NCBI GenBank assembly: GCA_964562175.1
Contig: CAZLRV010000010.1
Span: forward strand, 1,344-65,343
DNA: 64,000 nucleotides
Reading direction: 5' to 3'
Origin: an uncultured Lachnospiraceae bacterium
GTDB lineage: Bacteria; Bacillota; Clostridia; Oscillospirales; CAG-272
Shown here: positions 20,282-37,246 of the stretch, in pieces
Layout: the number at the start of each line of letters is the position of its first letter
Position numbering within the stretch: the stretch's first letter is position 1
Notes under the pieces: generated by a model
Told to the model about the DNA's origin: nothing
The model's database searches: none
Seen by the model: only the letters and a program-made list of their open reading frames with translations
Made by a program: the position numbers and the translations under genes

Positions 20282-21769
20282 ATGAGTGAACAAATAGAAA
20301 ACAACGAACAAGAACTGAGCGAGGTAGTGGCTATACGTCACGCAAAGCTTGACGCACTTAAAGAAAGCGGAAAAGACCCATTCGTTATAACAAAATACGA
20401 CGTTACCGCAAAATGCAAGCAGATAAAGGAAGAATTTGAGACTCTCGAAAATCAGACAGTAAGAATTGCCGGCAGAATGATGTCACGTCGTGACATGGGA
20501 AAGGCAAACTTTATAGATATTGCCGATTCCACCGGCATGGTTCAGGCGTATATAAAGATCGACGATATAGGACAAGAGCTTTTTGATGATTATAAAAAGT
20601 GGGATATCGGCGATATAATCGGTCTTGAGGGCTTCGTATTCAAAACACGTAGAGGCGAGATATCGGTGCATGCAAAGAATTTAGTGCTTCTTTCCAAGTC
20701 ACTGCTTCCCTTGCCCGAAAAGTGGCACGGTCTTAAGGACACGGACACACGTTACCGTCAGAGATATGTCGATCTGATAGTCAATGCCGAGGTTCGCAAT
20801 ACCTTTGTTTGCAGAAGCAAAATAATAGCCGAAATGAGGAATTACTTAAACGGAGAGGGCTTCTTGGAGGTTGAAACTCCCCTGCTTCACAATCAAGCGG
20901 GCGGTGCGGCTGCTCGTCCCTTCGTCACACACCACAATTCTCTCGATATAGATATGTATCTGCGTATAGCGCTTGAGCTTCATTTGAAGAGATTGATAGT
21001 CGGAGGCTTCGACAAGGTCTACGAAATAGGCAGAGTATTCCGTAACGAGGGCATGGACGCACGCCACAACCCCGAATTTACATTGATGGAGCTTTATCAA
21101 GCGTATACCGACTTTGAGGGAATGATGGATCTGAGTGAGAATCTTATAAGACATCTTGCAAAGACCGTCGTAGGCTCAACGCAGATAAAATTCGGAGAAT
21201 ATGATATAGACCTTGAAAAGCCGTTTGAAAGACTTTCCATGCTTGATGCCGTAAAGAAATATTCCGGCGTTGACTTCAATATTATAACCTCGCTTGAGCA
21301 AGCAAGACATGCTGCGAAGAATTTTCATATTGAATTTGAAGAGCGTCATAAGATCGGCGATATACTCAATCTGTTCTTTGAAGAATATGCCGAAAAGAAG
21401 CTTATTCAACCGACGTTTATCACACATCATCCCGTTGAAATATCACCTCTTGCAAAAAGATGCCCCACCTCACCGAATTATACCGAAAGATTTGAGCTTT
21501 TCATCGCAGGCTCGGAGCATGCCAACGCATTTTCGGAGCTTAACGACCCCATCGACCAACGTGCGAGATTTGAAGCCCAAGCGGCGCTCAAAGCACAGGG
21601 CGATGAAGAGGCTTGCGGCGTTGACGAAGATTTCCTCTGCGCCCTCGAATACGGTATGCCCCCCACAGGCGGTATCGGTATCGGCGTAGACCGCCTCGTT
21701 ATGCTCTTGACAAATAATACCTCCATCCGCGATGTTCTTCTCTTCCCGACAATGAAACCCATTGATTGA
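20282..21769 (+). CDS. lysS: lysine--tRNA ligase (class II)
   Basis: OB-fold N-terminus and class II motifs (FRNEGMDARHNPEFTLMELY, GIGIGVDRLVMLL). Confidence 0.95.
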   Translation: MSEQIENNEQELSEVVAIRHAKLDALKESGKDPFVITKYDVTAKCKQIKEEFETLENQTVRIAGRMMSRRDMGKANFIDIADSTGMVQAYIKIDDIGQELFDDYKKWDIGDIIGLEGFVFKTRRGEISVHAKNLVLLSKSLLPLPEKWHGLKDTDTRYRQRYVDLIVNAEVRNTFVCRSKIIAEMRNYLNGEGFLEVETPLLHNQAGGAAARPFVTHHNSLDIDMYLRIALELHLKRLIVGGFDKVYEIGRVFRNEGMDARHNPEFTLMELYQAYTDFEGMMDLSENLIRHLAKTVVGSTQIKFGEYDIDLEKPFERLSMLDAVKKYSGVDFNIITSLEQARHAAKNFHIEFEERHKIGDILNLFFEEYAEKKLIQPTFITHHPVEISPLAKRCPTSPNYTERFELFIAGSEHANAFSELNDPIDQRARFEAQAALKAQGDEEACGVDEDFLCALEYGMPPTGGIGIGVDRLVMLLTNNTSIRDVLLFPTMKPID

Positions 21770-21785
21770 CATATTATTTTTCAAA

Positions 21786-21831
21786 GCCGTAATTTGATAT
21801 CTTAAGATATCAAATTACGGCTTTCTTTTTT
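21786..21831 (+). terminator. lysS Rho-independent terminator
   Basis: Perfect 36-nt palindrome GCCGTAATTTGATATCTTAAGATATCAAATTACGGC followed by TTTCTTTTTT. Confidence 0.85.
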
Positions 21832-21909
21832 AAGCTGCACTTTAGGATACGAGCCATGGTATAAAAGTCATGGTTTTTTGTCGCTTTAATTGTTAATAAT
21901 GTTTTTACA

Positions 21910-21931
21910 ATATATATATATATATATATAT
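21910..21931. repeat. (AT)11 microsatellite
   Basis: Uninterrupted AT dinucleotide run read directly from the sequence. Confidence 0.95.
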
Positions 21932-21935
21932 GATG

Positions 21936-21944
21936 TGATATAAT
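21936..21944 (+). promoter_or_regulatory. extended -10 element TGaTATAAT (copy upstream of the island operon)
   Basis: Perfect TATAAT with an upstream TG, immediately after the (AT)n tract. An identical element lies at 37250-37258. Confidence 0.45.
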
Positions 21945-22299
21945 CACATATATAGGAATCAACGACAAGATAAATTCGAAAACATTCGATGCTCTCACGG
22001 GGTCAAAAGAACGTCAATCATACTCAAGCAGAAAGCTTCGGGGTTTCTTTAATGAAAAGTCAAAAATATTATAGAATATTTTGTCGAAACACATCGAGCT
22101 TCCGTTCAAACGACGGTGTACCATAATAGAGTTTGATAATACATTCAGAAACGAAACAGCTTCTTGTTTCAAATACATAGTATGGAATCCGTTTATTCAG
22201 AACTATACCTAAGCCGGCGTCGAAATTGTCTGCCGTAGCAGCATAATCTGCGGAGATCATCAATGTGAATATCATAAAATATTGAAGGAGGCTAAAAGG

Positions 22300-25152
22300 A
22301 TGATCAAAGGAAATAAAACGATAATTGACGATTTTACGCAGTATCTCTCGGAAAAAGTATCTCCTTCTCAGCTCTCGGGGTTATACTTCTGTTTTTCTGA
22401 AATCGAGAATTTCTGTTTAAAAGTCAAAGTATTACATAAACCTCTATTTGAAACGACAGATTTTGAGACGATCAAAAAAGTCCGTCAAACAATAGAACAG
22501 AACAAGATTTTCAGAGTTACGCATAAGCGTCAGTATAATAAAATTCTGATTGCTTGCAGGCAATATTATCTTTATATCAAAGAAGGTCATTTTCCTCAGG
22601 GAGAGAAACAATTCAAAGAGGAATGTAAGGATCGTTCGAAAAATATTGAAGCAGCATCGCAAAAAAACGCTGTCGGTAATGCTTCCGTTGAGACACAAAT
22701 TGTACGAACAAATCAAGACGAGAGGCTTTTGCAGAAATATCCGATCGTTTACAAGCAAGTATACAATGCACTTATAAATGCCGGTTGTTCATTATCAATT
22801 GAAATTATCTGCAATAAGATCGGGCGTATTGCTCGCTCTGCGGTGCTTGAAGAGATATTGGATAGTGTAAGTTGGGCAAAGTGGGTTGAGAACGAGTATT
22901 CTTTTTCAACTGAAATTGAGGAGCATCACATTGTCGCAAACGAGGTCAATGAGAAATCAATAGTAAACGAAGCAAAAACCGCTGTTACCTACGTAATTGA
23001 TTTCAACAGTTCCTTTGATCTTACTTACTCCAAGCCTATATCATTCACCTATTTTGGAGCAAAAAAAGAATTCGGTAACACATGGGTCGATCTTTATATT
23101 GCTTTTTTCGAGGCAATTCACGAGGATCATCATCATTTGTTGAAGCCCGGTATGTCATTCTCAAAAACAGGCACACGAGTTGAACTTGCGGAAAATACAA
23201 ATTACGATCTCATGATCGATCCAAAGCATATTCCCGGAACGAATCTAATGCTGGAAACCAATGTTAGTGCAAAAGATGTTGCTTCCAAAATCAAATACGT
23301 TCTTGAGCTGTGCGGCATTGACTTTGAAAATATTATAATCGGTTACATTAAAAAGAATGACGTTTCCCCCTCAAAGGAAGAGTGTCCCACTAATCCATCA
23401 AGAAGAGGAGCAAGCGGCTATAGCGCTGATTTTTACAATTTTCTATCAAAGAGATTAGGAATGGCAGAGGCAACTTGCCGTAGCTACGTTTCGGCTATCA
23501 ATAACTGTGAATCATTTGCAAAAGAGCATCACTTTGTGTCTTGGCAACTATACGGAGTACAACAAACCGCCGCAGAAGAAACTATTAAGCTCCTAATGGC
23601 AGATGAAGCTTTTCAAAAGTATACTGCGAGCCAACATAACAGATTTCGCACAGCACTTCAAAAATATCTGTTGTTTGTTGGAAGCGAAGCTGTAATTCAC
23701 AGCACTGCACCGGAACCTTATAGAACCGAAGTTGCCGCACCATATAGAAATGAAGAATATGAGATGATGCTCAGCCGTTTTTTTCAAAAAGGATTTCGAA
23801 TGGAATCTCCGCTTGAGATACGAAAATTCAGGCGATACTACTCGTCAACTTACGAAAAAGAGCTTCTCGATTCCGACGATGAAATAAGCTGCAATATTAG
23901 GAAGCTTGCAATTGAATACGACGGAAAAGCTTTCTTGCCCGTTGCAATGCTCAATGATGAAGTTAAAGCTCAACTGTATGCCTACATTGATTCCGCATTT
24001 GCCGAAGGAAAAAAAGCAATTTACTATCAGGCATTATACGCAGAGTTTGCAGAAACTTTTCTTGACCACCATATTCATAATGCAGATATGCTTAAAGCGT
24101 ATTTATCTGCCACAGCTAATGGGAAATTCTATGTTCAAAAGAATTTTATATCAAAGGAAGAAAATGTAACGATAGATCCGCTCTCGGAAATTCGCAAATG
24201 CCTCATTGAGTATGGTAGACCCGTAGAATACGAAGAATTATTTGAAGCGTTACCGCACATACCGCAGAAGAAAATCAAGTATCTATTAGCAAGCAATGGA
24301 GAGTTTATAAATAACGGACAAGGTACTTACTTTCATGAAAAAACAGTACGGCTTTCGGATGATGAGCTTGAAAGCATTGCCGAAATTATCAGCTGTACAA
24401 TAGAAGACAAGGACTACATGGGCGGCAATGAGCTCTATGATGCAATTAAGGCGAAGTACGGTTACATTATAGAAGATAATAAGCTGCTATCCATATATGG
24501 CTTCAGAGACGCTCTGAGCGCAAAACTCGGCGATAGATTTTCTTTTAAGGGAAATATTATCAGCCGCTACGGCAACGAGTTATCTATGGCTGATGTATTT
24601 GCAAAATACGCCCAAACGCACGACAGCTTCACATTGTCTGAACTTCAGGAACTTGCTTCTAATCTGGCAACAGTAATTTACTTTGATGCCGTATACGAAA
24701 ACAGCCTGAGAGTCAGCAAAGAGCAGTTTGTATCTAAAGAAATGGCGCAGTTTGCAATCTCCGAGACCGATGATGTGCTTGATCGCATTTGTCTTGGAAA
24801 ATATATTCCGATTTGTGAAGTTCAAAACTTCGGAATTTTCCCATATGGAGGATTTACTTGGAATAGTTATTTGCTGGAACACTATGTTGCAAGTTATAGC
24901 CATAAATACAAGCTTCTTCACAGAGGCTTCAGCGAAACGGAATGTGCGGGCGCAATAGTACGACGTTCCGCAAATATCAATAGCTTTGACGATTTAATTG
25001 TCGATATCTTAGTCAACGACCCGATCGAATTGAACCAATCCTCGGTACTTCAGTACTTGAGTGACAAAGGATATCTTGTGCGAAGAAGATATTCCGAAAT
25101 TGAATCGCTTATGATCAAAGCGAAGGCACAGAAACAGAGGAGGGGCGACTAA
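22300..25152 (+). CDS. large uncharacterised protein, first gene of the BREX-like operon
   Basis: 950-aa ORF (ATG at 22300 after GGAGG; the track start is TTG at 22282). No P-loop or other catalytic motif seen. It has an internal duplication of an ~84-aa module. Its stop lies 2 nt before brxP. Confidence 0.7.
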   Translation: MIKGNKTIIDDFTQYLSEKVSPSQLSGLYFCFSEIENFCLKVKVLHKPLFETTDFETIKKVRQTIEQNKIFRVTHKRQYNKILIACRQYYLYIKEGHFPQGEKQFKEECKDRSKNIEAASQKNAVGNASVETQIVRTNQDERLLQKYPIVYKQVYNALINAGCSLSIEIICNKIGRIARSAVLEEILDSVSWAKWVENEYSFSTEIEEHHIVANEVNEKSIVNEAKTAVTYVIDFNSSFDLTYSKPISFTYFGAKKEFGNTWVDLYIAFFEAIHEDHHHLLKPGMSFSKTGTRVELAENTNYDLMIDPKHIPGTNLMLETNVSAKDVASKIKYVLELCGIDFENIIIGYIKKNDVSPSKEECPTNPSRRGASGYSADFYNFLSKRLGMAEATCRSYVSAINNCESFAKEHHFVSWQLYGVQQTAAEETIKLLMADEAFQKYTASQHNRFRTALQKYLLFVGSEAVIHSTAPEPYRTEVAAPYRNEEYEMMLSRFFQKGFRMESPLEIRKFRRYYSSTYEKELLDSDDEISCNIRKLAIEYDGKAFLPVAMLNDEVKAQLYAYIDSAFAEGKKAIYYQALYAEFAETFLDHHIHNADMLKAYLSATANGKFYVQKNFISKEENVTIDPLSEIRKCLIEYGRPVEYEELFEALPHIPQKKIKYLLASNGEFINNGQGTYFHEKTVRLSDDELESIAEIISCTIEDKDYMGGNELYDAIKAKYGYIIEDNKLLSIYGFRDALSAKLGDRFSFKGNIISRYGNELSMADVFAKYAQTHDSFTLSELQELASNLATVIYFDAVYENSLRVSKEQFVSKEMAQFAISETDDVLDRICLGKYIPICEVQNFGIFPYGGFTWNSYLLEHYVASYSHKYKLLHRGFSETECAGAIVRRSANINSFDDLIVDILVNDPIELNQSSVLQYLSDKGYLVRRRYSEIESLMIKAKAQKQRRGD

Positions 25153-25154: not shown

Positions 25155-27515
25155 ATGTATTCATATAATTGGGACGCAGAAACGGGAGGTCTTCTGCTGA
25201 ATACTTCCCCACTGACATTCAGCAAAGAACCTCGTCCGGTATATTATAAAGAACTTGACATTCTCGGGTTTGATAAGTATTGGAATTACGCAAAAGATGA
25301 CACATATCCGTATATGTGGGCAGAAGCAAACAATTACTTTTACAGGGGGCGGCTTGTTGCAAAGACAAAAGGAGGCAGTCTGTATACTGCACCTGAAATC
25401 ATTATTCTTGAGGATGCGGAACCCGACGGGGAGCCGCTCCGCTTCGTTGACATACCGGCAATGGTGAGCAAGAACCGTGATTTGATCGAGAAGCTCGCTG
25501 CTGATACCATCAAAAAAATCTATAACATTTATATAGATTATGCAGGGAGGGTAGATGTTTTCTATGTTGCATTCAGCGGCGGTAAAGATAGTATAGTAGC
25601 ACTTGATCTTGTGCAACGAGCATTGCCGCACAACAGCTTCAAGGTGTTGTTTGGGGATACTGAAATGGAATTTCCCGACACATACGATATTGTTGACAAA
25701 ATCCGCAATTATTGTATTCAAGAAGATATCGAATTTTTAAGATCAAAGTGCGATTTCCCACCTGAGTACACATGGCACAAATTCGGTCCTCCTGCCCAAA
25801 CAATTCGCTGGTGCTGTAGTGTACATAAAACTGCGCCTCAAGTTATACTTCTTCGAGAACACATGAATAATCCTCACTTTCGAGGAATGGCCTTTACAGG
25901 AGTTCGGGGCGATGAAAGCGTGTCAAGAAGTGAGTACGAAGGAGTCAGTCAAGGAGAGAAAATCCGAGGACAATATAGTTGTCATCCGATTTTGGAGTGG
26001 AACTCGGCAGAATTGTTTGCCTATATTTATGATAGAAATCTTCTGATAAATGAAGCATATAAAAAAGGAAACAGTCGAGCGGGTTGTTTAGTTTGTCCGT
26101 TAGCAGCATCCAAAAATATGTATTTTAAAGAGCAAGCGTACAACACCGGGTGCAACGGGCATAGGTCAACGGCAACATTTAACGATATCATCTTGGAAAC
26201 CACTTCGAAAGAACTCTCAGCTCCGGAAGCTATAAAAGAATATATGGATATCGGAGGCTGGAAAGCAAGGCGAAGCGGCAAGGAACTTTCTTTTGCCAAA
26301 AGTTATTCAACTGAGGTCTTTGAAAAAGGTATTCTCACAATTCATTTAACACAAAAAAATACTGATTGGAAACAGTGGATAAAAACAATCGGTGATATCT
26401 CATTTTTAGAAAATGGAGATGTCGATGTACTTTATCGTGGAAAATTATATCACATTGAAATCGAAGAAAATGATAAGGAACTCACAGCAGTTGTAAACAT
26501 CGGTTCAAATACACAAAAGGATATTTATTTTGCATCGGAACTAAAGACTATCTTTAGGAAAACTGCTTATTGCATCGGTTGTAGAGTTTGTGAGGCAAAT
26601 TGTCCAAATGGATTTATAACCATGAAAAACGGGTGCGTTACTATAGATAATCGATGTGTTAAGTGCAAGAAATGTCATGATATATTTCATGGTTGCTTAG
26701 TTGCGAACTCGTTACGATTGCCGAAAGGAGATAATAAAATGGGAAGCATAGATAGATATGGAAATATGGGAATTGAACTCAATTGGGTGAAAGAGTATTT
26801 CAAAACAAAAGATGAATTTTGGAATTCCCCACACAGTTTAGGAACGAACAAGGTTAAATACCTTAAAAGTTTTCTTAATGATAGTGAGATCACCGTGAAA
26901 GGTAAGCTTTCCGATTTCGGCAGAGTCATTGATTACATCGGTATAGAAAATACAGATGCATGGGCATTGATGCTCTGCAATCTTGCCTATACATCGGAAT
27001 TTAATTGGTGGGTAAAGAATATCAAATTCTCGATTATATACACTCCAGACACAATTTATGCGATGCTCGATGATGCAATGAGCAAAAATTCAAAATCGCA
27101 CATTGTTTCCGCATATAAGAATATCTTGATTTCAAATCCACATTTTGGTAACGAAATAGGGCTTGGAACTTGCGAATACGAAATTAAAAACGAAAAGCGT
27201 TTATGGAACAGTGTGATTAGGCTCGAGTGGAAAACGCCTAATCCTCTCGTTATCCTCTACAGTCTTTTTAAATTTGCTGAGGCTTGTGGAAATTATCACC
27301 AGTTCACGCTCTCTCGGTTGCTGAATCACGATATTGAAAGTGACGGCATCAGCCCTACCGAGATCTTCGGACTTGATAGGAAGCAGATGGAAAAGCTTCT
27401 TAGCGGTCTTTCCATTAACTACCCTGATTTCATCAACGCAAGCTTTACGCTTGATCTTGATAACATTACGCTAAATTGCGAAAAGACATCGCAAGATGTT
27501 TTGAAGCTGTTCTAA
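25155..27515 (+). CDS. brxP: PAPS-reductase/PP-loop ATP pyrophosphatase family protein with ferredoxin-type Fe-S motif (BrxP-like, DndC/SspD-related)
   Basis: PP-loop VAFSGGKDSIVALDL, then RWCCSVHKTAP, GVRGDES, and CIGCRVCEANCPNG...CVKCKKC. The long C-terminal extension may be DUF4007-like (inference). Confidence 0.8.
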   Translation: MYSYNWDAETGGLLLNTSPLTFSKEPRPVYYKELDILGFDKYWNYAKDDTYPYMWAEANNYFYRGRLVAKTKGGSLYTAPEIIILEDAEPDGEPLRFVDIPAMVSKNRDLIEKLAADTIKKIYNIYIDYAGRVDVFYVAFSGGKDSIVALDLVQRALPHNSFKVLFGDTEMEFPDTYDIVDKIRNYCIQEDIEFLRSKCDFPPEYTWHKFGPPAQTIRWCCSVHKTAPQVILLREHMNNPHFRGMAFTGVRGDESVSRSEYEGVSQGEKIRGQYSCHPILEWNSAELFAYIYDRNLLINEAYKKGNSRAGCLVCPLAASKNMYFKEQAYNTGCNGHRSTATFNDIILETTSKELSAPEAIKEYMDIGGWKARRSGKELSFAKSYSTEVFEKGILTIHLTQKNTDWKQWIKTIGDISFLENGDVDVLYRGKLYHIEIEENDKELTAVVNIGSNTQKDIYFASELKTIFRKTAYCIGCRVCEANCPNGFITMKNGCVTIDNRCVKCKKCHDIFHGCLVANSLRLPKGDNKMGSIDRYGNMGIELNWVKEYFKTKDEFWNSPHSLGTNKVKYLKSFLNDSEITVKGKLSDFGRVIDYIGIENTDAWALMLCNLAYTSEFNWWVKNIKFSIIYTPDTIYAMLDDAMSKNSKSHIVSAYKNILISNPHFGNEIGLGTCEYEIKNEKRLWNSVIRLEWKTPNPLVILYSLFKFAEACGNYHQFTLSRLLNHDIESDGISPTEIFGLDRKQMEKLLSGLSINYPDFINASFTLDLDNITLNCEKTSQDVLKLF

Positions 27516-27528
27516 GGAGAAATATGCA

Positions 27529-30500
27529 ATGCCAATGTTAGAGAAATATCGAGATTATTTTGATATCGATCCTGATTATTTTCCTGCCGTAAACGAAGCA
27601 GTTATTACAAAGAATCCGAATGTGTGGAAGAAGTTTTTCCCGCACGAAACCTTTATTAAGCTCATCAAGAACACTGTCAGTGTACTTGAACGCAGACAAA
27701 AACAATGTTTGTGGGTCGAGGGTGCTTATGGTACCGGTAAATCTCATGCGGTTCACACGCTGAAAAAGCTTTTGGATTCGGACGATGCGGACACCCGCGA
27801 GTATTTTAAAAAATATGATCTTGATAATGACCTGCTCAATCGGTTTCAAGCAGTCAAATCCGGCGCTCGCATTCTTACCGTTCACCGCTATGGTTCCGCT
27901 ACCATCCATGGTGATCACAATCTCGTATTCGCAGTTCAGGAAAGCATAGAAAAAGCTCTTATCGATGCCGGCATTGAGAATAAGGGTGGCAACGCTCTGA
28001 AAAATGCCGCAATCGCTTGGCTTTCCGATAAGGATAACAAAAGCTACTTCAACGGACTTATCACCGGCACATATTCAGATATATTCGGCGGAGATAATGT
28101 TGATATGGTTATCGAAAAGCTTCGCACATTTTCCGGCGATGCATTGGCAAAAGCTATGGATAACATCTTCAGAGTCGCTGACGAGCGTCAAATAAAGGCA
28201 TTGTCTTTGAGTGTTACCGACCTCTGTAATTGGATCCGTGAGGTAATAAAAGCCAATAGCCTGAAGGCTATTGTGTTTATCTGGGATGAATTCACCGAGT
28301 ACTTTTATAACAATACTCGTAATCTGACAGGCTTCCAAGAACTGTGCGAAATCAGTGAAACAGATCCCTTCTATTTTGTATTGGTGACACATGTTACGCA
28401 GGGTTTATTCCATGAACACGATCGTGATTTTATTAAGTTGAACGGACGCTTCGTCAGCCCGCATAGCTTAATTAGTCTGCCTGAAAACATTGCATTTCAG
28501 CTCATGGGTGCGGCAATGGAGAAAAACCAAGATCCTGCCGTAGCAGAAGATTGGGAGATCGCCTTGGGAGATTTAACCGACAGGACTCAAAATTCTCGAA
28601 AGCAGGTTAAATCAGTTGCCCGTATTACGGACAAAGAAATGACGGATATTCTCCCGATACACCCCTATGCGGCATTGCTTTTGAAGCATATATCATCTGC
28701 ATTTGATTCCAATCAACGCAGCATGTTCGATTTCATAAAAAATGATCGTGACGACGAGATCAAGGGCTTTCGGTGGTTTATTGACACTTTCGGTCCGGAG
28801 GACGACAATCCTCTGCTTTCCGTCGATATGCTATGGGAATTCTTCTACGACAAGGGCAAAGAATATCTTGCGCATGATATCCGTTCGATTCTTGACTACT
28901 ATAACCGAACCGGTAATCAAAGGTTGGATTCCGACCAAAAGCGCGTGTTAAAGACCGTTCTGCTGTTGCAAGCTATTTCTCAATATGCGGGTGATTCGGT
29001 AGAACTGTTTATTCCCAACGAAAAGAATCTCAATAATGCGTTTGAGGGCACGGATATGGAGGGTTCAGCAGCTCGTTGTGCAGATCAGCTTGTCCGTGAT
29101 AAGATTCTGTTTTCCAAATCTTTGGGCGGTGGCAAATTCCAGTACGCCGCTTATAACAATGAGGGAGAAATTGATGTTACGCCTTTTGAGGAGCAGATCG
29201 ATAAAAAGAGTACATCTGCTTTGATCATTGAAGAACTTGCAGACAGAACCAGAATCGTTGACGCAATTACTTTGGGCGGGGCGTTGAAGCTTCGTTACGA
29301 GCTACGTTATGTATCGTCATCTGATTTTGATTCTGCGATCAAGCAGCTTCGTAATACCGAAGATAAATATGACAACAAAATCGTTGCGGTCGTTTGCTTT
29401 GCAAAGGATGATGCCGAGAGTGTTGTTATTGGCAAAAAGATCAGAGATGCGCTTGCCGATGGTTCCTATCACATGATCTTTATCGATGCATCCCGAACAC
29501 CACTCGGAGCTGATGGATATAGTACATACCGTCATGATATGGCTTTGTCCATGTCTCAGCAAGGCAAAGACGGAGCGCTGGCAACACAGTATGCAAATAA
29601 CGCCAAAGATTCCCTGAAGAAATGGAAAAACAGAATTACAGCCGGCGAATTTATTATTCACACTGCGGATAAACGTGACGGAGAGCGTGCTACCTCTCTC
29701 GATGCGCTGTACACAATTCTTGCCGAAGTGAATAAGAAAAAGTTTCCCGGATGCCTTGAAGGTGCGTACAATGTTATTGCAAATATGTATACGCCGAATA
29801 ATCTTAAGCAGGGTGTTGAGTGTGCATTTAACGAAAAAACCGCAGGTACTTTTCTTTCCGGAAGTCCCGCAACAAAGCTTGAAACCGCACTGGAAGGTGC
29901 ATGGAAGGTAGCAGAATACTGGAAGATAAAGCCACACCTTTTGATTTCCAAAATCAAGCTTTGTGTTGATGAAATTGTAACCGATGGGTTTAACAATGGC
30001 GGTCGTGTATCTATTAAGAAGATCTACGATGTACTGAAAACCGCTCCTTACGGATTTATGCCCTGCAATCTCACTGCATTTATTCTGGGATTTGTTCTCA
30101 AGGAGTATGCGACCGGTACGTACAGTTGGAGCGACGGCTTGACAAATGATGTTCTGAATGTGGTCAAGCTGAAGGAGATGATCGATGAGGTCATCCGACT
30201 TGAGATCACGCCTAATCCTCGCTACAAAGACAAATACATCGTTGCTATGACTCAGGAAGAAAAAGCTTTTAATGAAATTACTTCGACCGCATTCGGGATC
30301 CCTCTCAACATATGTACCTCCGTACCGAACACAAGAGAACGGATTCGCGGAAAAATGAAGGAATACTCATTCCCGATCTGGACAATCAAATATATCTTGG
30401 ATTCGGTCGTAACAAAAACCGATAAAGCCGTATTAAGTGAAATTATAGACCTTTTCTGCGGAATTGCAAATAGCAATAACATGGGATCATCTAAGACCGA

Positions 30501-31731
30501 CAGCGATATAGCCATGTCGATCGGAAAGCTTTCACTCGACAATATTGATGCGGCATCCGATTTGAAGAATATTCTGACAAAAGAAAATTGCACAAATGGC
30601 ATGATACGATACATTGCGTCTTTTGACAATGGGTCGTTGGTTAATTTGTCTGAGGAGATCGGCGACGGTGGTCAATATATCAATGTATTACGCAAGAAAT
30701 TTGATGCGGATGCCGCGACTTGGGTGTGGAATGTCGAAACCGTGCAGCAGAAGATTTGCGAGGTGATATTAGAATATGCTACTATTGTCGAGAGCAATAA
30801 AGTTATCTCCAAGAACATCTCCTATGATGCAACTATTAGAGAATGGTGTGATAAATGTGGATATATTCGCATTTCTTATGCCGCCGCAAAAAACTATCTG
30901 GATGAGCTTGGTCCTTTCCTGAGCCTTCTGCATAGCATGAAAAAAACCGGAACTTTGCCGGATTCTCAGAAAAAAGCCTTTTTGGAGTTGCTTGAAGCAA
31001 ACGCCGAGTTATTCCGTGACTTTTACAATAATCAAGTCAAAATGTTTAAGCGAGTGTGCGGATATTATTTGGACAAGCTATCCGACGAAGAAATAAAAGA
31101 AGTTTTCAGCACAATTCCCTCCGGCTCCTTTACTTACGAAAAAGCTGACTACCTAAACACCGTTGAAAGTAAAGTGAAGTCCTACAAGGAGGGACGAAAG
31201 AGCACGAAGCTGAAGAAGTTCTGGAAGGATAAGACAGGCACCGATTCGCCGCGTGAATGGTCCGAAAAGCATGAAATGCCGATACTTTGTTTAATTCCCG
31301 ACGATGAAGTAGCAAAAGCAAGAACGGCTTTCGGTGCAGTTAACCGTACAAAGCCTGACGAGGCATCCATAGACAAAGCAAATGAGTATTTTGCTTCCGC
31401 AAAATTCTTCGACTTGCTTGATGATGAAGCAGCACTCGACAGAGCGTTCAGAAACGGTGTCATAAAGAACTACTCGGTTATGCTTACAGACATACCGGCT
31501 GTAAAGGAATATCTTAATTCTCACATTGAAGCGGAGCCTTTTGATTGGTTCGGTCTTCCGGAAATCGAAAAGAAATTACACATGATGGCAGAAGCCAACT
31601 ACAATCAAGGCGGTTGCGAGCGTGCATTGGCAAAAATCGATGAAATGGATATTGCCGATGTTAAGAAATATCTAAAGGATTTGATCAAGGATAATATGAT
31701 CGTCGGCATGGAGATCATCAAAGAAAACTAA
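27529..31731 (+). CDS. brxC: BREX P-loop ATPase BrxC/PglY-like
   Basis: 1400 aa. Walker A EGAYGTGKSH near residue 65 and Walker B VFIWDEF. Positioned between brxP and pglZ. Confidence 0.75.
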   Translation: MPMLEKYRDYFDIDPDYFPAVNEAVITKNPNVWKKFFPHETFIKLIKNTVSVLERRQKQCLWVEGAYGTGKSHAVHTLKKLLDSDDADTREYFKKYDLDNDLLNRFQAVKSGARILTVHRYGSATIHGDHNLVFAVQESIEKALIDAGIENKGGNALKNAAIAWLSDKDNKSYFNGLITGTYSDIFGGDNVDMVIEKLRTFSGDALAKAMDNIFRVADERQIKALSLSVTDLCNWIREVIKANSLKAIVFIWDEFTEYFYNNTRNLTGFQELCEISETDPFYFVLVTHVTQGLFHEHDRDFIKLNGRFVSPHSLISLPENIAFQLMGAAMEKNQDPAVAEDWEIALGDLTDRTQNSRKQVKSVARITDKEMTDILPIHPYAALLLKHISSAFDSNQRSMFDFIKNDRDDEIKGFRWFIDTFGPEDDNPLLSVDMLWEFFYDKGKEYLAHDIRSILDYYNRTGNQRLDSDQKRVLKTVLLLQAISQYAGDSVELFIPNEKNLNNAFEGTDMEGSAARCADQLVRDKILFSKSLGGGKFQYAAYNNEGEIDVTPFEEQIDKKSTSALIIEELADRTRIVDAITLGGALKLRYELRYVSSSDFDSAIKQLRNTEDKYDNKIVAVVCFAKDDAESVVIGKKIRDALADGSYHMIFIDASRTPLGADGYSTYRHDMALSMSQQGKDGALATQYANNAKDSLKKWKNRITAGEFIIHTADKRDGERATSLDALYTILAEVNKKKFPGCLEGAYNVIANMYTPNNLKQGVECAFNEKTAGTFLSGSPATKLETALEGAWKVAEYWKIKPHLLISKIKLCVDEIVTDGFNNGGRVSIKKIYDVLKTAPYGFMPCNLTAFILGFVLKEYATGTYSWSDGLTNDVLNVVKLKEMIDEVIRLEITPNPRYKDKYIVAMTQEEKAFNEITSTAFGIPLNICTSVPNTRERIRGKMKEYSFPIWTIKYILDSVVTKTDKAVLSEIIDLFCGIANSNNMGSSKTDSDIAMSIGKLSLDNIDAASDLKNILTKENCTNGMIRYIASFDNGSLVNLSEEIGDGGQYINVLRKKFDADAATWVWNVETVQQKICEVILEYATIVESNKVISKNISYDATIREWCDKCGYIRISYAAAKNYLDELGPFLSLLHSMKKTGTLPDSQKKAFLELLEANAELFRDFYNNQVKMFKRVCGYYLDKLSDEEIKEVFSTIPSGSFTYEKADYLNTVESKVKSYKEGRKSTKLKKFWKDKTGTDSPREWSEKHEMPILCLIPDDEVAKARTAFGAVNRTKPDEASIDKANEYFASAKFFDLLDDEAALDRAFRNGVIKNYSVMLTDIPAVKEYLNSHIEAEPFDWFGLPEIEKKLHMMAEANYNQGGCERALAKIDEMDIADVKKYLKDLIKDNMIVGMEIIKEN

Positions 31732-31742
31732 GGAGGTACGAT

Positions 31743-34073
31743 ATGACCACCGATGAAGTTATAAAAAAGATAGATCGCTATCTGAGGAAGGATGATGTCG
31801 GATCTATTATAGTTGATGTACAAAACAAGACCGATATGGAGATAATTGTTACTCATTATCAATTACCTCAATACACCTTCATATATGCATCAGATCCTGA
31901 AATCTGTAATTATGACGAGTTCCCGACAATTGATAGGCTTCTTGAAAGAATTGCTAATGAGACTGACAGCTTTTTCATTAAAGAGCTTTCTACCTTTTAT
32001 ATGCTGAAAGGTGAAAAAGAGCTGTCTCGGGAATTAAAGGAGCTTCTGTCTATGAATATCGCCGGTCATGTTGTATTTCTTACTTATCAATGCAAAAATT
32101 ATCTTCAAGCACTTATCAAAAGCGATAAACGTCTGCAGGGACGAGTTTGTATTATTGACGGACAACAGTGTCTACGTCCAAAGCTTGTATTTACGATTGG
32201 CGGAGTTCGATCTTTGGGCAACGGCAAGACGGTCAAGGGGTTGCATAGCCTTGCCGGTGCCATTGAATGCGAGTCGGCAGACACGATCTATGTTGAAACA
32301 AAAAAGCTCAAGGCAAATTTTCCTTTATCACTATACACTGTTTTTGAACGACACAGTCCTTATGATATCTTGTGTGATTTAGACGAATTAACTTCCGTTC
32401 TTGACCGTAATGCCGGTTCGGAGGAAGAATGGGAGTACGCTCTTGCTGAGTTTCAGACATTTCACTCATGGAGTGATTTTCTAACTGACAAGTTTGGAAG
32501 CGTTCAAAGCCTTGGCAGTGCCATTTCAAACTATAAATTAAATTCTAACGATAAAACTTGGTGTTGGCTTTACTTTATTGGCTTGAAATTATTTGGCGCG
32601 ACTAATGACCGATACATGAACAACGCAGTATCTAAGGCTTTGTCGCCTTCTGATTTTGTACGTGGCATATATCGAGGCATTTTAGAATTAGAGATAAACG
32701 ACGATTCGTTTGAGACAGTATACGAAAGAAGAAAGGCATTATTGAATGCACTGGGTAATCCGATAAACGAGACCATCGATTTTTGCAAAATTGTACTCAG
32801 CAAAGGAAAGAATGCAATATGTTATCTTACTGACAATTCCATTCAGGAGAAGGAACTCGTATTTGAACTGCTTGAAAAATATGGAACGGATTATACAAAA
32901 GCAGAAATCCTCTCAATATTGAGGAAAGTATATCCGGCATTGTATTCATATTTACAGCCGTTTAGATTTAAAAATGAGCTTTTGGATGGTTATTTTCAGG
33001 ACTATAAGTATCAGAAGGTGATTAACAAAATCTTTCCGGAGTTTATGGCACTCGTTGAACAACAAGCAGTTACCAGGGACTACAATGTACTGCTTCCGCC
33101 TCGAAGTGCGTTGGTGGAAAATATTGACACAGCAAATACACAAACATATTTTACCGATGCAATGGGTGTGGAATTTCTTGGATTTATCATGGATAAATGC
33201 AAAGAACTGCAGCTAATGGCTAAGGTATCTGTGTGTAGAAGTGAATTACCGTCGATTACAAGCCGCAATAAGGATTTTTGGGAGGAGCTTTCCAACGCAA
33301 GTTATCCGATCATCACTGTTGATAAGCTTGATAAGATCAAACATCACGGAGAAGATGGATTTGACTACAGTCGCAAAGACAGAAAACTTCCGATCCATTT
33401 GATAAGAGAGCTTGAAATAATTGACGATCTTCTCAAAAAAATTAAGTCAGACCTTGCATCGGGTAAGTATGCTAAAGGGATACTCATCTCAGATCATGGA
33501 GCGAGCAGGCTCGCAGTGATCCACGAAACCGAAAATCTTTGGGAGATGGGCTCCGCCGGAAAACATTCCGGAAGATGTTGTCCCAAAAGCGAGATCGACA
33601 CAAGACCGAATAGTGCTGCCGATGCGGATGATTTCTGGGCATTGGCAAACTATGATCGTTTTAAAGGCAGTAGGAAAGCAAACGTTGAGGTTCACGGTGG
33701 TGCGACCTTAGAGGAAGTCGTAGTTCCGATCATTGAAATCACATACTTGAACAATTCCATTGAGGTTAAACTAATGCCGCTTGATGCTCCGGCAAGTTTC
33801 GTTGGAGCGCCGAAAATCAGCGTAAGTTTCCGAAAAAAGGCAGCCATTAAGATTTTCGCTACACGTAAATTGATGGATGTGTGCATTGAGATCGATGGTC
33901 ATACATATGATGCCGAGCCTATAGACGATAATTTCTATGTAGTAAAGGAAATGCCGGAGATCCGCAAAGCAAAGCAATATGCTGTTGATGTATACGCTTG
34001 CGGAAACAAGATTGCCGATTCTTTACCGCTGGTCGTTGAGAAAGAAAGCGGAAGCGAAAACAGCATACTCTAA
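31743..34073 (+). CDS. pglZ: PglZ domain (alkaline-phosphatase superfamily) protein
   Basis: Hallmarks of the PglZ domain: YFTDAMGVEFLG ... ILISDHGASRL ... HGGATLEEVVVPII. AGGAGG RBS. Confidence 0.85.
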   Translation: MTTDEVIKKIDRYLRKDDVGSIIVDVQNKTDMEIIVTHYQLPQYTFIYASDPEICNYDEFPTIDRLLERIANETDSFFIKELSTFYMLKGEKELSRELKELLSMNIAGHVVFLTYQCKNYLQALIKSDKRLQGRVCIIDGQQCLRPKLVFTIGGVRSLGNGKTVKGLHSLAGAIECESADTIYVETKKLKANFPLSLYTVFERHSPYDILCDLDELTSVLDRNAGSEEEWEYALAEFQTFHSWSDFLTDKFGSVQSLGSAISNYKLNSNDKTWCWLYFIGLKLFGATNDRYMNNAVSKALSPSDFVRGIYRGILELEINDDSFETVYERRKALLNALGNPINETIDFCKIVLSKGKNAICYLTDNSIQEKELVFELLEKYGTDYTKAEILSILRKVYPALYSYLQPFRFKNELLDGYFQDYKYQKVINKIFPEFMALVEQQAVTRDYNVLLPPRSALVENIDTANTQTYFTDAMGVEFLGFIMDKCKELQLMAKVSVCRSELPSITSRNKDFWEELSNASYPIITVDKLDKIKHHGEDGFDYSRKDRKLPIHLIRELEIIDDLLKKIKSDLASGKYAKGILISDHGASRLAVIHETENLWEMGSAGKHSGRCCPKSEIDTRPNSAADADDFWALANYDRFKGSRKANVEVHGGATLEEVVVPIIEITYLNNSIEVKLMPLDAPASFVGAPKISVSFRKKAAIKIFATRKLMDVCIEIDGHTYDAEPIDDNFYVVKEMPEIRKAKQYAVDVYACGNKIADSLPLVVEKESGSENSIL

Positions 34074-34085
34074 GGAGGAATAGCC

Positions 34086-35537
34086 GTGATTGAAAAATTG
34101 AGAAATTGTTTTGATGATATGGTTGTCTACAAAGACTTAAAGAAAAGTAATTTTTTCTCGGCTTTAGGACTGCCTTCGTTTTTGAGAGATTGGTTGATAA
34201 AGAAATTTTCCGATGATGATGGCAATCTTGACGTTGAGAAGCTTACCGACTTTATCCGTACATATCTTCCGAATAAGGAAGAATGGATAAGTATTAAAGA
34301 CAGGATCATCAACGACAACGAGAGGGTGAAGCTTCTCACAAGAATATCTGTTGATATTAGCATTAAAACGGGTGAAGTCGCATTTTCACTTCCCAATTTT
34401 GGGCTGACAAACAAGGAAACAATGATTGACAATTCCACCTGGGAGCAATATAGAGGTGAGCTTGCAAGCGGTCAAGAAATATGGGGAGTTATTGAGTTGG
34501 GTTATCGTCCGCCCGATGATACGGTGAAGCCTAAGATCCCGGGCAAGATCAAGCTTATCGGATTTACCAATTTTTGCCCATACACAATTGATTTAGACTA
34601 CTATAAAGATGTCCGAAATGAATTTACCACTTCCGAGTGGATCGATGTGCTTCTCGGTGCAATTGATTACAATGCATCGGGGTATGAAAACGAAGAACAA
34701 AAGCTTGCTATGCTGACGAGAATTCTGCCCTTTGCCGAGAAACGCCTTAACCTAATAGAGCTTGCACCCAAAGGAACGGGAAAATCCTATGTTTTCGGTC
34801 ATGTTAGTAAATACGGACTCCTCACCGACGGAGGAAAAGTAACACGTGCAAAAATGTTCTATGATGTTGCGCGAAAAACTCCCGGCTTTATTTCCGGGAA
34901 CGATTTTGTTGCCATTGACGAGGTGAAACTTGTTCAATTTGGCGATGTCAATGAGATGCGCTCCATTATGCAAGGATATATGGAGTACGGTCAATTCAAC
35001 ATTGGAGGATATGAAGGAAAATCTGATGCAGGTGTAATATTCCTCGGCAATATTGCTCAGGATAATATGGATGAGTACCGGAATATGTTCTCGGAGCTTC
35101 CTCCCCTATTTCAGGAAAGTGCATTGGTAGATAGAATACACGGCTTTATAAAAGGCTGGGATATTCCCAGGATGAACGATGATCTCAAGCTCTCCGGCTG
35201 GGCGTTAAATTCGGAATATTTTTGCACGATCCTGCATGAGCTACGTAGCGATATTTCTTACCGAACTATTGTTGATAGGGTGATTGAAGTCCCCGACAAG
35301 GCAGATACTCGTGATACCGAGGCGATAAAAAGAATCGCCACTGGTTATTTAAAGCTTTTGTTTCCCAATGTGAGAAGCGTGTACGATATAAAACCCAAAA
35401 CATTCCAACAATATTGCCTTCGTCCGGCGGTGCGTATGAGAAAGATCATTAAAAGGCAGCTTGGTATTTTGGACAAAGAATTCAAAGGTAAGGATGTTCC
35501 ATCTTTCGCGTTAAAGGAGATAACGGATGAAGAGTAA
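34086..35537 (+). CDS. brxL: BrxL-like AAA+ ATPase lacking the C-terminal Lon-protease domain
   Basis: Collinear with the BrxL N-terminal and ATPase regions (EWIDVLLGAIDY, ELAPKGTGKSYVF, VAIDEV, DRIHGFIKGWDIPRM), but it ends at 483 aa. GTG start after AGGAGG. Confidence 0.8.
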   Translation: MIEKLRNCFDDMVVYKDLKKSNFFSALGLPSFLRDWLIKKFSDDDGNLDVEKLTDFIRTYLPNKEEWISIKDRIINDNERVKLLTRISVDISIKTGEVAFSLPNFGLTNKETMIDNSTWEQYRGELASGQEIWGVIELGYRPPDDTVKPKIPGKIKLIGFTNFCPYTIDLDYYKDVRNEFTTSEWIDVLLGAIDYNASGYENEEQKLAMLTRILPFAEKRLNLIELAPKGTGKSYVFGHVSKYGLLTDGGKVTRAKMFYDVARKTPGFISGNDFVAIDEVKLVQFGDVNEMRSIMQGYMEYGQFNIGGYEGKSDAGVIFLGNIAQDNMDEYRNMFSELPPLFQESALVDRIHGFIKGWDIPRMNDDLKLSGWALNSEYFCTILHELRSDISYRTIVDRVIEVPDKADTRDTEAIKRIATGYLKLLFPNVRSVYDIKPKTFQQYCLRPAVRMRKIIKRQLGILDKEFKGKDVPSFALKEITDEE

Positions 35538-35724
35538 CTGCGTCATATGCGGAAAAGATCGCCTTAGTAAAGACACCATCGGCATTAACAGGAAATTGTT
35601 AGGAGAAGATATAGATAACTTTTACTGCCTTGACTGTCTTGCAGAGTATCTCGGTTGTACAGTCGATGAACTCCTTGATAAGATCGAGGAGTTCAAAGAA
35701 GAGGGCTGTAAGCTGTTTGCCTGA
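35527..35724 (+). CDS. 65-aa zinc-ribbon protein (CxxC ... CxxC)
   Basis: CVICGKD ... CLDCLAEY. The ATG overlaps the brxL stop by 11 nt, with an AAGGAG RBS inside brxL. Confidence 0.6.
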   Translation: MKSNCVICGKDRLSKDTIGINRKLLGEDIDNFYCLDCLAEYLGCTVDELLDKIEEFKEEGCKLFA

Positions 35725-35738
35725 TCATAAAGAGAAAA

Positions 35739-36863
35739 ATGAAAAGTATTGTTTATGCCGATAATGCGGCAACCACAAAATTGGATATTGATGCATTTGA
35801 GGCGATGAGGCCATACTTATTGGAAGAATACGGCAATGCTTCTCAGCCATACTCGTTTGCCCGAACAGCAAAAAATGCCTTGAAAGAATCCAGAGAAATC
35901 ATTGCGCAATGCATTGGAGCCGCTCCGGAAGAAATATACTTTACTTCAGGCGGAACGGAAAGCGATAATTGGGCAATCAAGGGTAGTGCTTTTTCCGACC
36001 CCTCGAAACGTGCGACGATCACATCAACAATTGAGCATCATGCAATTCTGAATGCCTGTGCAGACATTGAAAGATTAGGATATCCTGTAAGCTATTTGCC
36101 GGTAGATTCTTATGGTAAAGTTTCGCCTCAAGCACTTTCCGAATGGATTACCGACAATACAAGATTGGTATCGATTATGTTTGCAAACAATGAAATAGGA
36201 ACGATCCAAGAAATTCAAAAATTATGTAGCATTACACATTCGATGGGAGCAATCTTCCATACCGATGCAGTACAAGCCGTAGGTCATACCGATATCGATG
36301 TGAAATCACTTGGGATCGATATGCTGTCCGCATCCGCTCATAAGTTTAACGGTCCTAAAGGCATTGGTTTTCTGTATATACGGAGCGGAACGAAAATCAC
36401 TTCCTATATCAGCGGTGGCAAACAAGAATTTGGCATGAGGGCGGGGACGGAGAATGTAGCATCAATTGTTGGTATGGCGGTTGCTCTTGAGAAGAATCTG
36501 CGGTTTTTGAACGAGAACACGGCTCACATAAAAAAGCTTGAGAAAGATCTAATCGATGGATTACGCATGAAAAAGATTGATTTTGTACGAAATGGCGGTG
36601 ATATTGGAATCCCGGGCAATATAAGCTTATCGTTTGGCGGTTATGAGGGAGAAGCGTTATTGCACCGGCTCGATCTTATGGGAATTTCCGTATCGACCGG
36701 TTCTGCTTGCGACAGTCATAATACTCGGATATCCCATGTCCTTAGGGAAATTGGGCTTAGTAATATATTGGCTAAAGGAACAATTAGAATTTCCCTCGGC
36801 AAATCTAATACCGAGGATGACATAAAAGCGATCTTATCGGCACTCTCAAAAATCGTTACCTAA
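35739..36863 (+). CDS. cysteine desulfurase, class V aminotransferase (NifS/IscS/DndA/SspA-like)
   Basis: PLP lysine motif SASAHKFNGPKGIGFLY and catalytic loop STGSACDS. Size 374 aa. Confidence 0.88.
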   Translation: MKSIVYADNAATTKLDIDAFEAMRPYLLEEYGNASQPYSFARTAKNALKESREIIAQCIGAAPEEIYFTSGGTESDNWAIKGSAFSDPSKRATITSTIEHHAILNACADIERLGYPVSYLPVDSYGKVSPQALSEWITDNTRLVSIMFANNEIGTIQEIQKLCSITHSMGAIFHTDAVQAVGHTDIDVKSLGIDMLSASAHKFNGPKGIGFLYIRSGTKITSYISGGKQEFGMRAGTENVASIVGMAVALEKNLRFLNENTAHIKKLEKDLIDGLRMKKIDFVRNGGDIGIPGNISLSFGGYEGEALLHRLDLMGISVSTGSACDSHNTRISHVLREIGLSNILAKGTIRISLGKSNTEDDIKAILSALSKIVT

Positions 36864-36891
36864 TGGCGGCATATCGGCAGGAAAGCATATT

Positions 36892-37056: not shown

Positions 37057-37096
37057 ACAGCAATAAAACTCCTTGATTGACATATTATTTTTCAAA

Positions 37097-37214: not shown

Positions 37215-37246
<32 letters not shown>

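Follow-up and report, generated by a model that had tools for sequence, protein, structure and literature searches.

How a 15.1-kb island came to lie between lysS and a DUF4234 gene, bracketed by imperfect direct repeats and with no integrase among its genes, is the question raised by this locus, which was examined in a 64,000-nt stretch of DNA (the window; all positions refer to it) from a 1.9-Mb assembly of 41 contigs. The genes around the island are housekeeping genes, and the island itself carries a seven-gene type 4 BREX cassette. The features on which the analysis rests are collected in Table 1.

Table 1. Features of the island, its flanking genes and the two repeat copies, in order along the window.
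Feature	Position	Strand	Basis
lysS, lysyl-tRNA synthetase, 495 aa	20282-21769	+	Pfam tRNA-synt_2 1.7e-92 plus OB-fold
Left repeat copy, lysS 3' end to leader start	21750-21995	+	Alignment, terminator scan, folds
Orphan junction segment, 141 nt between left copy and cassette	21996-22136	+	
Decayed 5' region of first cassette gene	22137-22299	+	tblastn, six-frame reading, DNA alignment
First cassette gene, remaining open frame, 950 aa	22300-25152	+	ORF list; unnamed family upstream of brxP
BrxP	25155-27515	+	PADLOC 7e-234
BrxC	27529-31731	+	PADLOC 8e-280
PglZ	31743-34073	+	PADLOC 1.6e-90
BrxL	34086-35537	+	PADLOC 1.6e-212
65-aa protein	35527-35724	+	Cassette member
DndA/SspA-like cysteine desulfurase	35739-36863	+	PADLOC DndA 2.3e-130
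YhcG/DUF1016-type PDDEXK nuclease remnant, 54 codons	36892-37056	+	Pfam, PADLOC
Right repeat copy, 20-nt lysS-end-like stub to leader start	37061-37310	+	Alignment, terminator scan, folds
DUF4234 gene (zinc-ribbon plus DUF4234 membrane domain)	37336-37863	+	Pfam DUF4234 7.3e-16

Formal alignment bore out the imperfect direct repeats of about 230 bp that the original prediction had placed on either side of the island. In a local alignment of 21750-21979 with 37061-37293, 202 of 234 columns were identical (86.3%, with 5 gap positions), and the score of 297 compares with 21.2 ± 2.8 in 300 shuffles (maximum 35), which rules out chance likeness of AT-rich intergenic DNA. Identity was 22-24 per block of 25 columns over the first 100 columns and 19-21 thereafter, and beyond the aligned core a weak similarity extends to about 21995 and 37310, for a total repeat of about 245 nt. 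The repeat opens with a perfect block of 25 nt (TTGATTGACATATTATTTTTCAAAG), the length of the longest identical blocks, and the count of two mismatches in the first 76 nt proved exact (21787 C/T and 21812 A/G, counted from 21762). These are the only two copies in the assembly. The AT-richness of the region, with its (AT)n tract, and its source in a 41-contig assembly might suggest a chance similarity or an artefact of assembly; however, besides the shuffle test, the island and the right copy were recovered independently from eight other samples, a contig from another sample (L082) reaches from the left copy to the right, and k-mer collapse cannot create such a structure because exact matches between the copies never exceed 25 nt. 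This explanation is refuted by these results, and the probability left to it is negligible.

What is repeated is the whole intergenic module between lysS and the DUF4234 gene, present in two copies. Each comprises the last 20 nt of lysS (in the left copy, which they begin) or a stub resembling them (in the right), followed by two hairpins, an (AT)n tract, a predicted extended -10 element (TGATATAAT; 21936-21944 left, 37250-37258 right) and the start of the DUF4234 leader. The first terminator of the left copy is a perfect 42-nt palindrome at 21783-21824 (fold -26.2 kcal/mol, z -8.5), with a second hairpin and T-run at about 21846-21882 (-11.8 kcal/mol). Its counterpart at 37094-37135 carries two G-U-compatible changes (-23.2 kcal/mol, z -7.9) and is followed by a hairpin with a T-run at 37163-37187 (-14.4 kcal/mol, z -4.0), both right-copy hairpins being detected by the terminator scan. 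Full pairing is kept in both terminator copies, which differ only by G-U-compatible changes, and the AT tract is (AT)11 at 21910-21931, (AT)14 at 37219-37246 and at least 29 nt long at the start of contig L082. Along the repeat, identity falls from 94% to about 82%, a gradient attributable to selection on the terminators together with fast change in the AT-rich promoter part. Downstream of the module, the DUF4234 gene is the native one; it has no relative on record above 64% identity.

The right copy opens with CAATAAAACTCCTTGATTGA, where lysS ends in CAATGAAACCCATTGATTGA (8/12 plus 8/8 matches), and the full intergenic module then follows. The 8/12 part is the resemblance to the end of lysS that had been reported just upstream of the right copy, eight matches in the 12 nt 5' of TTGATTGA (CAATGAAACCCA versus CAATAAAACTCC). 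The binomial probability of such a match is 0.0095 at p = 0.30, and the right copy therefore probably retains the 3' end of lysS as a diverged stub. A stub of this kind at the start of the right copy points to a duplicated target and not to a reusable regulatory element.

Between the repeats, BrxP (with its PAPS reductase domain), BrxC/PglY, PglZ and BrxL lie in one operon with no methyltransferase, the composition of a type 4 BREX system. The part of the cassette after the first gene (25155-36863, + strand) is also supported by Pfam and is collinear with loci L028-L034 of other genomes; the first gene is 65% identical to a 1073-aa homologue in locus L028 and is likewise 950 aa long in contig L082. 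The GC content of the island is 40.9%, compared with 46.6% for the genome, which puts it in the bottom 0.2% of windows of 15 kb. The same-genus genome lacks the cassette, and a search of 60 relatives yielded one partial match only, at a contig edge. Given this base composition and distribution, the segment between the repeats is foreign.

Pfam and PADLOC searches of the island genes confirmed that no integrase lies between the repeats, and revealed no transposase, conjugation or other mobility gene among the seven cassette genes and the remnant. No recombinase was found in the island flanks, and the whole genome gave a single tyrosine recombinase hit (PF00589), on another contig (C21). In other Eubacteriales, the same seven-gene cassette adjoins MobL, Toprim, TraG/VirD4 and ArdA genes, implying that conjugative elements are its usual vehicle; the present island has none of their genes. 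A single complete genome was examined, that behind locus L029: there the element carrying the cassette has serine recombinases at a distance of 22-30 kb, and lysS is on another contig. The loci in which the cassette rides integrative and conjugative elements (ICEs) have no sequence in common with the repeat or the junction segments, and the plasmid and phage collections searched contained neither a match to these segments nor a circular form, replicon or plasmid relative.

The inner edges of the island are broken genes. At the left, 22137-22299 corresponds to about codons 53-110 of related first genes, with three 1-nt deletions and one in-frame stop, and codons 1-52 are missing; its DNA identity to locus L028 is 69% (score 118, shuffles 28 ± 4). 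The orphan segment that precedes it matched nothing elsewhere in the genome, in the fetched loci or in phages, and when aligned as DNA with the starts of homologous first genes it scored no better than shuffles. A reading of 21980-22135 as the decayed N-terminus of the first gene ('ERQSYS' versus 'ERQPSW') was rejected on the same grounds, the DNA alignment equalling shuffles. At the right, the YhcG remnant (Pfam YhcG_C 6.7e-5, profile positions 84-116 of 157; PADLOC PDC-S02 1.9e-8) is truncated on both sides and abuts the join; over 30 aa it shares 43% identity with a full-length gene of 299 aa that stands beside lysS in another genome (G022). Broken genes at both inner edges indicate illegitimate joins and not the ends of an element.

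The earlier proposal that the insert brought or created a diverged second copy of its target fits these data, but its site-specific version, integration at the 3' end of lysS, does not find support. In that version, a decayed ICE or integrative and mobilizable element (IME) would have inserted at lysS carrying a replacement end, the repeats would be attL and attR, and the mobility genes would have been deleted later. The start of the repeat within the 3' end of a conserved housekeeping gene, with its perfect 25-nt block first, the carriage of the same cassette by ICEs elsewhere and the broken edges, which show that deletions or truncations did happen, would all be consistent with such a history. 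However, the homology does not stop at this block: about 245 nt long and graded, it takes in a promoter and leader, whereas an att core would be short and identical, and the deletions would have had to run up to the repeats, or to within about 140 nt of them, on both sides. The missing recombinase, the lack of shared sequence with the ICE loci and the position of the cassette element away from lysS in the complete genome argue in the same direction, and we consider a decayed element unlikely.

The arrangement is not confined to one assembly. Contigs of the island occur in nine other samples as two haplotypes, with an identical desulfurase protein, which implies that it is old and stable; in the Logan contigs of eight of the nine, the same right junction leads into the right repeat copy, and contig L082 runs from the left copy to the right through the same left junction. 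A suggestion from the size of the BrxP cluster that other samples lack the island was refuted by the exact desulfurase in eight more samples. One sample (SRR14160767) yielded contigs of the flanks and none of the island. In conspecific contigs lysS is identical or nearly so, and among the strains covered at 21166-21818, all from island-yielding samples, there are no SNPs and the 3' 600 nt of lysS are identical. A donor-derived tract is not visible in lysS, the sampled strains including no island-free comparator. A break of contigs at 21812 was rejected as a population boundary, since it falls exactly at the last 31-mer before the perfect 42-nt palindrome.

The right copy, by comparison, has three alleles among strains; strains with more than 99% identity elsewhere differ in it at 6-7 positions over about 60 nt, and some of its variants carry the left-copy state. 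It follows that the 14% divergence of the repeats is unreliable as a clock and, taken alone, need not imply a separate donor. This would be consistent with duplication of the module in situ, either in tandem before the insertion or by replication or repair during a doubly illegitimate insertion, with divergence in place thereafter. The fast change of the promoter-proximal part, the variants matching the left-copy state, which indicate shared ancestry or exchange between the copies, and the three frameshifts in the truncated first gene, which point to an old junction, would all accord with such an origin. Nevertheless, 245 nt is far beyond a staggered-cut target duplication, and a non-functional stub diverged at 4 of 12 positions beside a lysS essentially invariant between strains would need a long residence. 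The absence of the cassette from the same-genus genome and a GC content still far from that of the host also tell against an origin in situ. Duplication in situ is, on balance, an unlikely explanation.

We lean, with moderate confidence, towards a homology-assisted, integrase-free insertion from a related donor that duplicated the target module. A foreign piece of 15.1 kb, excised from a larger mobile element, would have been joined to the chromosome by the general recombination machinery, and in the donor the cassette would already have adjoined that organism's own version of the intergenic module. In a first possible route, lysS or the intergenic region would have supplied the homology by which one end recombined, and an illegitimate join about 20 nt short of the resident lysS stop would have attached the other end, moving the resident stub, module and DUF4234 gene downstream (homology-facilitated illegitimate recombination, or 'displacement'). 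In a second, a circular intermediate with one diverged copy of the module would have integrated by a single crossover of the Campbell type. The present layout is compatible with either route, and both presuppose that the truncated cassette had earlier come to lie next to a homologous intergenic module in the lineage of the donor. In the resulting layout, lysS would keep a terminator and the DUF4234 gene its own promoter, and the BREX operon would stand behind the first copy of the predicted DUF4234 promoter and end at the terminators of the second.

Searches for the empty site returned no counterpart. The left copy against 40 relatives, and the right junction, right copy and 5' part of the DUF4234 gene against 400 representatives of the family, gave only matches to lysS coding sequence or (AT)n; the exact hairpin pattern had no match in the genome and metagenome contig collections; and none of the assemblies searched contained an empty-site contig or an excision product. 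In the same-genus genome the contig ends within lysS, and its PAP2 contig is not syntenic. No conspecific or sister genome free of the island was found, and the ancestral single-copy state is accordingly one that we infer rather than observe. Gene order downstream of lysS is not conserved in 12 other genera, variable content being seen only between genera. A defence hotspot with alternative cargo, as suggested in the original prediction, did not emerge within the species, where all strains with island sequence carry the same island with the same junctions where these are covered. Its further suggestion of precise loss by homologous recombination gained no support, the identical blocks being no longer than 25 nt and no empty site having been found.

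A more speculative possibility is that the cassette with one copy of the module forms a self-sufficient shuttle that needs no integrase: recombination between the flanking copies would release a circle, and the copy that it carries would serve as a portable homology arm for re-insertion between lysS and the DUF4234 gene of related genomes. Each re-insertion would regenerate the repeat-flanked layout and give the operon a host-matched promoter and terminator. Alternative junctions of such a shuttle could have left the branches of the assembly graph at 37151 and 37728, although we regard the shuttle as very improbable. Logan contigs of three samples stop at 37728, inside the DUF4234 gene. A repeat or paralogue in the genome was tested as the cause of this break and found not to be so. 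No DUF4234 allele combining this C-terminus with another N-terminus turned up when one was searched for, and a look-up of the partial protein was also without match.

The locus is a clear example of a defence operon usually carried by conjugative elements becoming a fixed chromosomal locus with no recombinase of its own, through an insertion that is predicted to leave no transcription unit lacking a terminator or a promoter. The lesson for annotators is not to take long, graded direct repeats with a gene-end stub for att sites automatically. No new mechanism is revealed, since target duplication through homology-assisted insertion is established biology.

Several known systems resemble the locus in part. 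Campbell integration, a single crossover of a circular molecule, produces direct repeats of the shared segment around the whole insert, and the divergence of the repeats then equals that between donor and recipient. Direct repeats of a shared segment likewise flank the entire insert here, although this segment is only about 245 nt long and 86% identical with exact blocks of at most 25 nt, a poor substrate for RecA. The 3' end of a housekeeping gene, the direct repeats and a cargo that rides ICEs elsewhere recall integrase-mediated islands and ICEs, from which the locus differs in its broken edges, its long and graded homology, which continues well past the identical 25-nt block, and its lack of recombinase and transfer genes.

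The traits of displacement insertion are found at this site, namely an orphaned fragment of the lysS 3' end with displaced downstream DNA, and an illegitimate join at the non-homologous end. In the effector-immunity arrays of the Vibrio cholerae type VI secretion system (T6SS), insertion is anchored on one side and the ancestral downstream sequence is displaced (Kirchberger et al. 2017, PMC5361080), homology-facilitated illegitimate recombination having been described originally by de Vries & Wackernagel 2002 and Prudhomme et al. 2002, as cited there. As in those arrays, entry here would have been beside a conserved gene usable as a one-sided anchor, with the downstream sequence shifted and no need of a recombinase gene. 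By contrast, the displaced unit here is a non-coding terminator-promoter module with a 20-nt stub, the cargo is a 15-kb defence operon, and no anchor tract is visible, all strains with usable data being island-bearing. Rhs loci, as they are cited in PMC5361080, gather orphaned 3' regions, and an orphaned fragment of the 3' end of the anchor gene has similarly been kept at this site. Finally, the core defence hotspots of Pseudomonas aeruginosa (PMC10250203) are defence sites flanked by core genes and devoid of mobility genes, a setting shared by the present locus with its defence system between conserved chromosomal genes and its absence of mobile-element genes. Such hotspots are defined by alternative cargo at the same site across strains, whereas every island-bearing strain here carries the same cassette.

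Direct repeats flank the island between lysS and the DUF4234 gene; they were seen on reading both stretches and returned by a repeat finder, at an offset of 15311-15314 nt. Formal local alignment paired the two copies with 202 of 234 columns identical (86.3%) and five gap positions, and its score of 297 lies far above the 21.2 ± 2.8 (maximum 35) obtained in 300 shuffles. The repeats proposed in the original prediction are thus borne out, and its count of two mismatches within the first 76 nt is correct. Identity per block was 22-24/25 in the first 100 columns and 19-21/25 beyond, and weaker similarity extends to about 21995 and 37310 (MAFFT). The suggested lysS resemblance upstream of the right copy was also recovered: 8 of the 12 nt preceding the common TTGATTGA match (p ~0.0095), so the right copy probably opens with a diverged stub of the final six lysS codons. 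The longest exact blocks between the copies are 25, 25 and 24 nt. Only these two copies occur in the whole genome, and this is therefore not a dispersed repeat. Chance similarity and assembly artefact are excluded as its source, and duplication of the module in situ, followed by divergence, is unlikely.

Each copy comprises the whole lysS-DUF4234 intergenic module, followed in the right copy by a ribosome-binding site and the DUF4234 start (37336) and in the left copy by the island. The left terminator is a perfect 42-nt palindrome (-26.2 kcal/mol, z -8.5), and both substitutions in the right one (-23.2 kcal/mol) still pair, as G-U; full pairing is kept in both terminator copies, which accounts for the much stronger conservation of the repeat's 5' half relative to its 3' half. 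The predicted transcription layout is readily seen in the sequence: lysS retains its terminator, the BREX operon sits downstream of one DUF4234 promoter copy and ends at the second hairpin pair, and DUF4234 retains its own promoter.

Features of the repeat modules, the island and its right flank (window positions)
Feature	Left copy or single position	Right copy	Remarks
Aligned repeat	21750-21979	37061-37293	
lysS stop codon			module part
Terminator 1		37094-37135	19-bp stem, then CTTTTTT
Second hairpin with T-run			-11.8 (left), -14.4 kcal/mol (right)
(AT)n tract	21910-21931	37219-37246	11 units left, 14 right
Extended -10 element TGATATAAT	21936-21944	37250-37258	
Leader			~40-50 nt
Unnamed large first gene	22300-25152		
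BrxP	25155-27515		
BrxC	27529-31731		
PglZ	31743-34073		
BrxL	34086-35537		
65-aa protein	35527-35724		
DndA/SspA-like cysteine desulfurase	35739-36863		
ComEC-type competence channel gene	39573-41945		minus strand; 1.7 kb right of the island locus

PADLOC and Pfam identify the seven-gene set between the repeats as a type 4 BREX cassette. Its foreign origin, as originally proposed, is supported by windowed GC (0.409 versus 0.466 for the genome, in the lowest 0.2% of 559 15-kb windows), by its absence from the sole same-genus genome, and by a match in only 1 of 60 relatives searched, which was partial and at a contig edge. Eubacteriales very commonly carry BrxP relatives of 80-88% identity, and a Bacteroidales MAG also has such relatives labelled. 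In six contexts of a 'MULTISPECIES' BrxP, the same seven-gene set directly adjoins conjugation genes (Toprim and TraG/VirD4 coupling protein in 6/6, MobL relaxase in 4/6, ArdA in 1/6), and is therefore cargo of conjugative elements there. In the cassette loci L029-L034 of other Eubacteriales (e.g., L029:7511-21707), the set directly follows TraG/VirD4 and a small HTH gene of a conjugative element and precedes a SIMPL-domain gene; L031 has its PglZ gene divided into two. In the complete genome containing L029, the cassette lies on a 2.99-Mb record with a cluster of large serine recombinase genes 22-30 kb off, and lysS is on a different contig, so that this element occupies another site than lysS there.

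DNA similarity to related cassettes is confined to ~22137-22166 through ~36854. The first gene has no counterpart of codons 1-52 of its homologues, and the ~55 codons that follow (22137-22299) are disrupted by three 1-nt deletions and an in-frame stop. The lost N-terminal domain (MxxRQPSW...FQMHSMES...) is conserved among homologues; the 950-aa frame that is left stays intact in every strain, and the domain seems dispensable, or the protein seems to work without it. The 141-157 nt from the left repeat to the first-gene similarity had no match in homologous first genes, the rest of the genome, the fetched loci or phages. At the other edge, a YhcG/DUF1016 PDDEXK nuclease gene has left a remnant of 54 codons downstream of the desulfurase stop and before the right copy; it is cut on both sides, since only profile positions 84-116 of 157 are represented. 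By their sequence, the edges of the island are interrupted genes rather than the ends of an element. The sole outside match to the remnant (43% over 30 aa) is a full-length 299-aa gene of this type in a genome of another genus in the same family (L044, from G022:C61; 1828-2727, minus strand), directly 3' of lysS and convergent with it, and YhcG-type genes may have landed repeatedly in the 3' flank of lysS. In other relatives, the first ORF after or overlapping the lysS stop (L036, L037) encodes a conserved segment, KIDFS.VEIEPLFKDFVDF...LDDG.G..R.ILSGIH.YYEPEEL.GK, which may be a tRNA-binding domain, and an 'FWYYxKW' membrane protein is encoded at most ~700 nt 3' of lysS (L035, L036, L038, L039); the window has neither.

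As originally noted for the interval between the repeats, no recombinase was found within the island, nor among the flanking genes on the left (PcsB, S41 peptidase, GreA, LysS) or right (DUF4234, deacetylase, PAP2, ComEC, oxidoreductase); the single PF00589 match in the genome is on contig C21. A decayed integrative element, for which the conjugative contexts elsewhere might speak, is unlikely. The original prediction that the island entered with its own diverged copy of the target, site-specifically or by homology, stands as regards the second target copy and the foreign origin, but its integrase route is the less likely one. Site-specific integration fits poorly with a locus that has no recombinase, that shows long, graded homology extending over a promoter, and that has broken genes at or near both repeats; moreover, in the single complete genome examined the cassette element lies elsewhere than at lysS.

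Exact-protein look-ups recovered conspecific Logan contigs from more than a dozen runs, and nine other samples gave island-bearing contigs (L063-L070 plus L082, the full contig behind L064). L063-L069 and L082 share the YhcG remnant and the right junction and continue into the right copy; L070 ends at 37051, just before it, and L082 runs from 21910, within the left copy, to 37151, within the right. The islands fall into two haplotypes. Type A islands show 0-2 differences from the window, and type B islands (L063, L067) are ~99.4% identical to it, with all differences within 25876-32481 (BrxP, BrxC and the PglZ start; ~1%) and 0% across 32482-37170, a mosaic that suggests recent recombination or a sweep over the right half. 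In these strains, the flanking sequences differ by 0.1-0.4%. The layout therefore predates the divergence of the recovered strains and has been stably inherited. Over its final 600 nt, lysS does not differ among any of the strains covered there and gives no sign of a donor tract, a comparison without power because the same samples also yielded island contigs.

The right copy has three alleles with 6-7 differing sites within ~60 nt (37171-37221), including variants equal to the left-copy state (CCATGGTA in L063; TTTAC in both type B alleles). The left (AT)n tract reaches at least 29 nt in SRR14160766 (L082:1-29) versus 22 nt in the window, and L063 and L067 depart from the window's right tract by one or more units; these two tracts, just upstream of the extended -10 elements, also break the Logan assemblies. 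This variable part evolves fast or exchanges with its twin, which makes the 14% divergence between copies a weak clock.

Alternative cargo at a recombination hotspot could not be shown, the same island being present in all nine other samples covering that part; no island-free contig was among the conspecific contigs recovered, and SRR14160767 gave a 41-kb right-flank contig and no island contig. Nor could precise loss by recombination between the repeats be shown; given the short exact blocks and an island in 9/9 samples, such loss is expected to be rare.

Left-flank contigs terminate at 21812 or 21818. The break at 21812 was rejected as a biological boundary and is technical, falling exactly at the point where the 42-nt perfect palindrome necessarily interrupts a k=31 graph. 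An end at exactly 37151, in the right copy just past terminator 1 (stretch 37121 to 37152), is common to four island contigs, each from a different sample (L064, L066, L068, L069), and three others read through; k-mers common to both copies were ruled out as the cause, the exact blocks being at most 25 nt. The right-flank contigs of three samples (L051, L052, L054) all start at exactly 37728, inside DUF4234; L067, the island contig of SRR36265362, stops at 37757 and has exactly 30 nt (k-1) in common with its neighbour. Since the genome has no repeat or paralogue at 37727-37758, some alternative sequence in these samples has those 30-mers, and the 37728 end may mark a recombination boundary or structural variant. 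No recorded DUF4234 protein pairs the same C-terminus with a different N-terminus.

The layout is what general recombination yields when incoming DNA and the chromosome have one short region in common. In a one-sided anchored insertion, one end would be joined by homology and the other illegitimately, pushing the resident gene-end stub and downstream DNA beyond the insert; alternatively, in a Campbell-type event, a circle with a diverged module copy would integrate through a single crossover. Both routes fit, and they are not separable on present data. The ComEC-type gene nearby may indicate that DNA-uptake machinery exists in this organism, which would bear on a transformation-based route; nothing was seen linking it to the island. 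The kind of event is already known: the displacement expected from one-sided insertion has been put forward (PMC5361080) for T6SS effector-immunity arrays and for Rhs loci whose 3' regions are orphaned, and the lysS-DUF4234 island is a new example.
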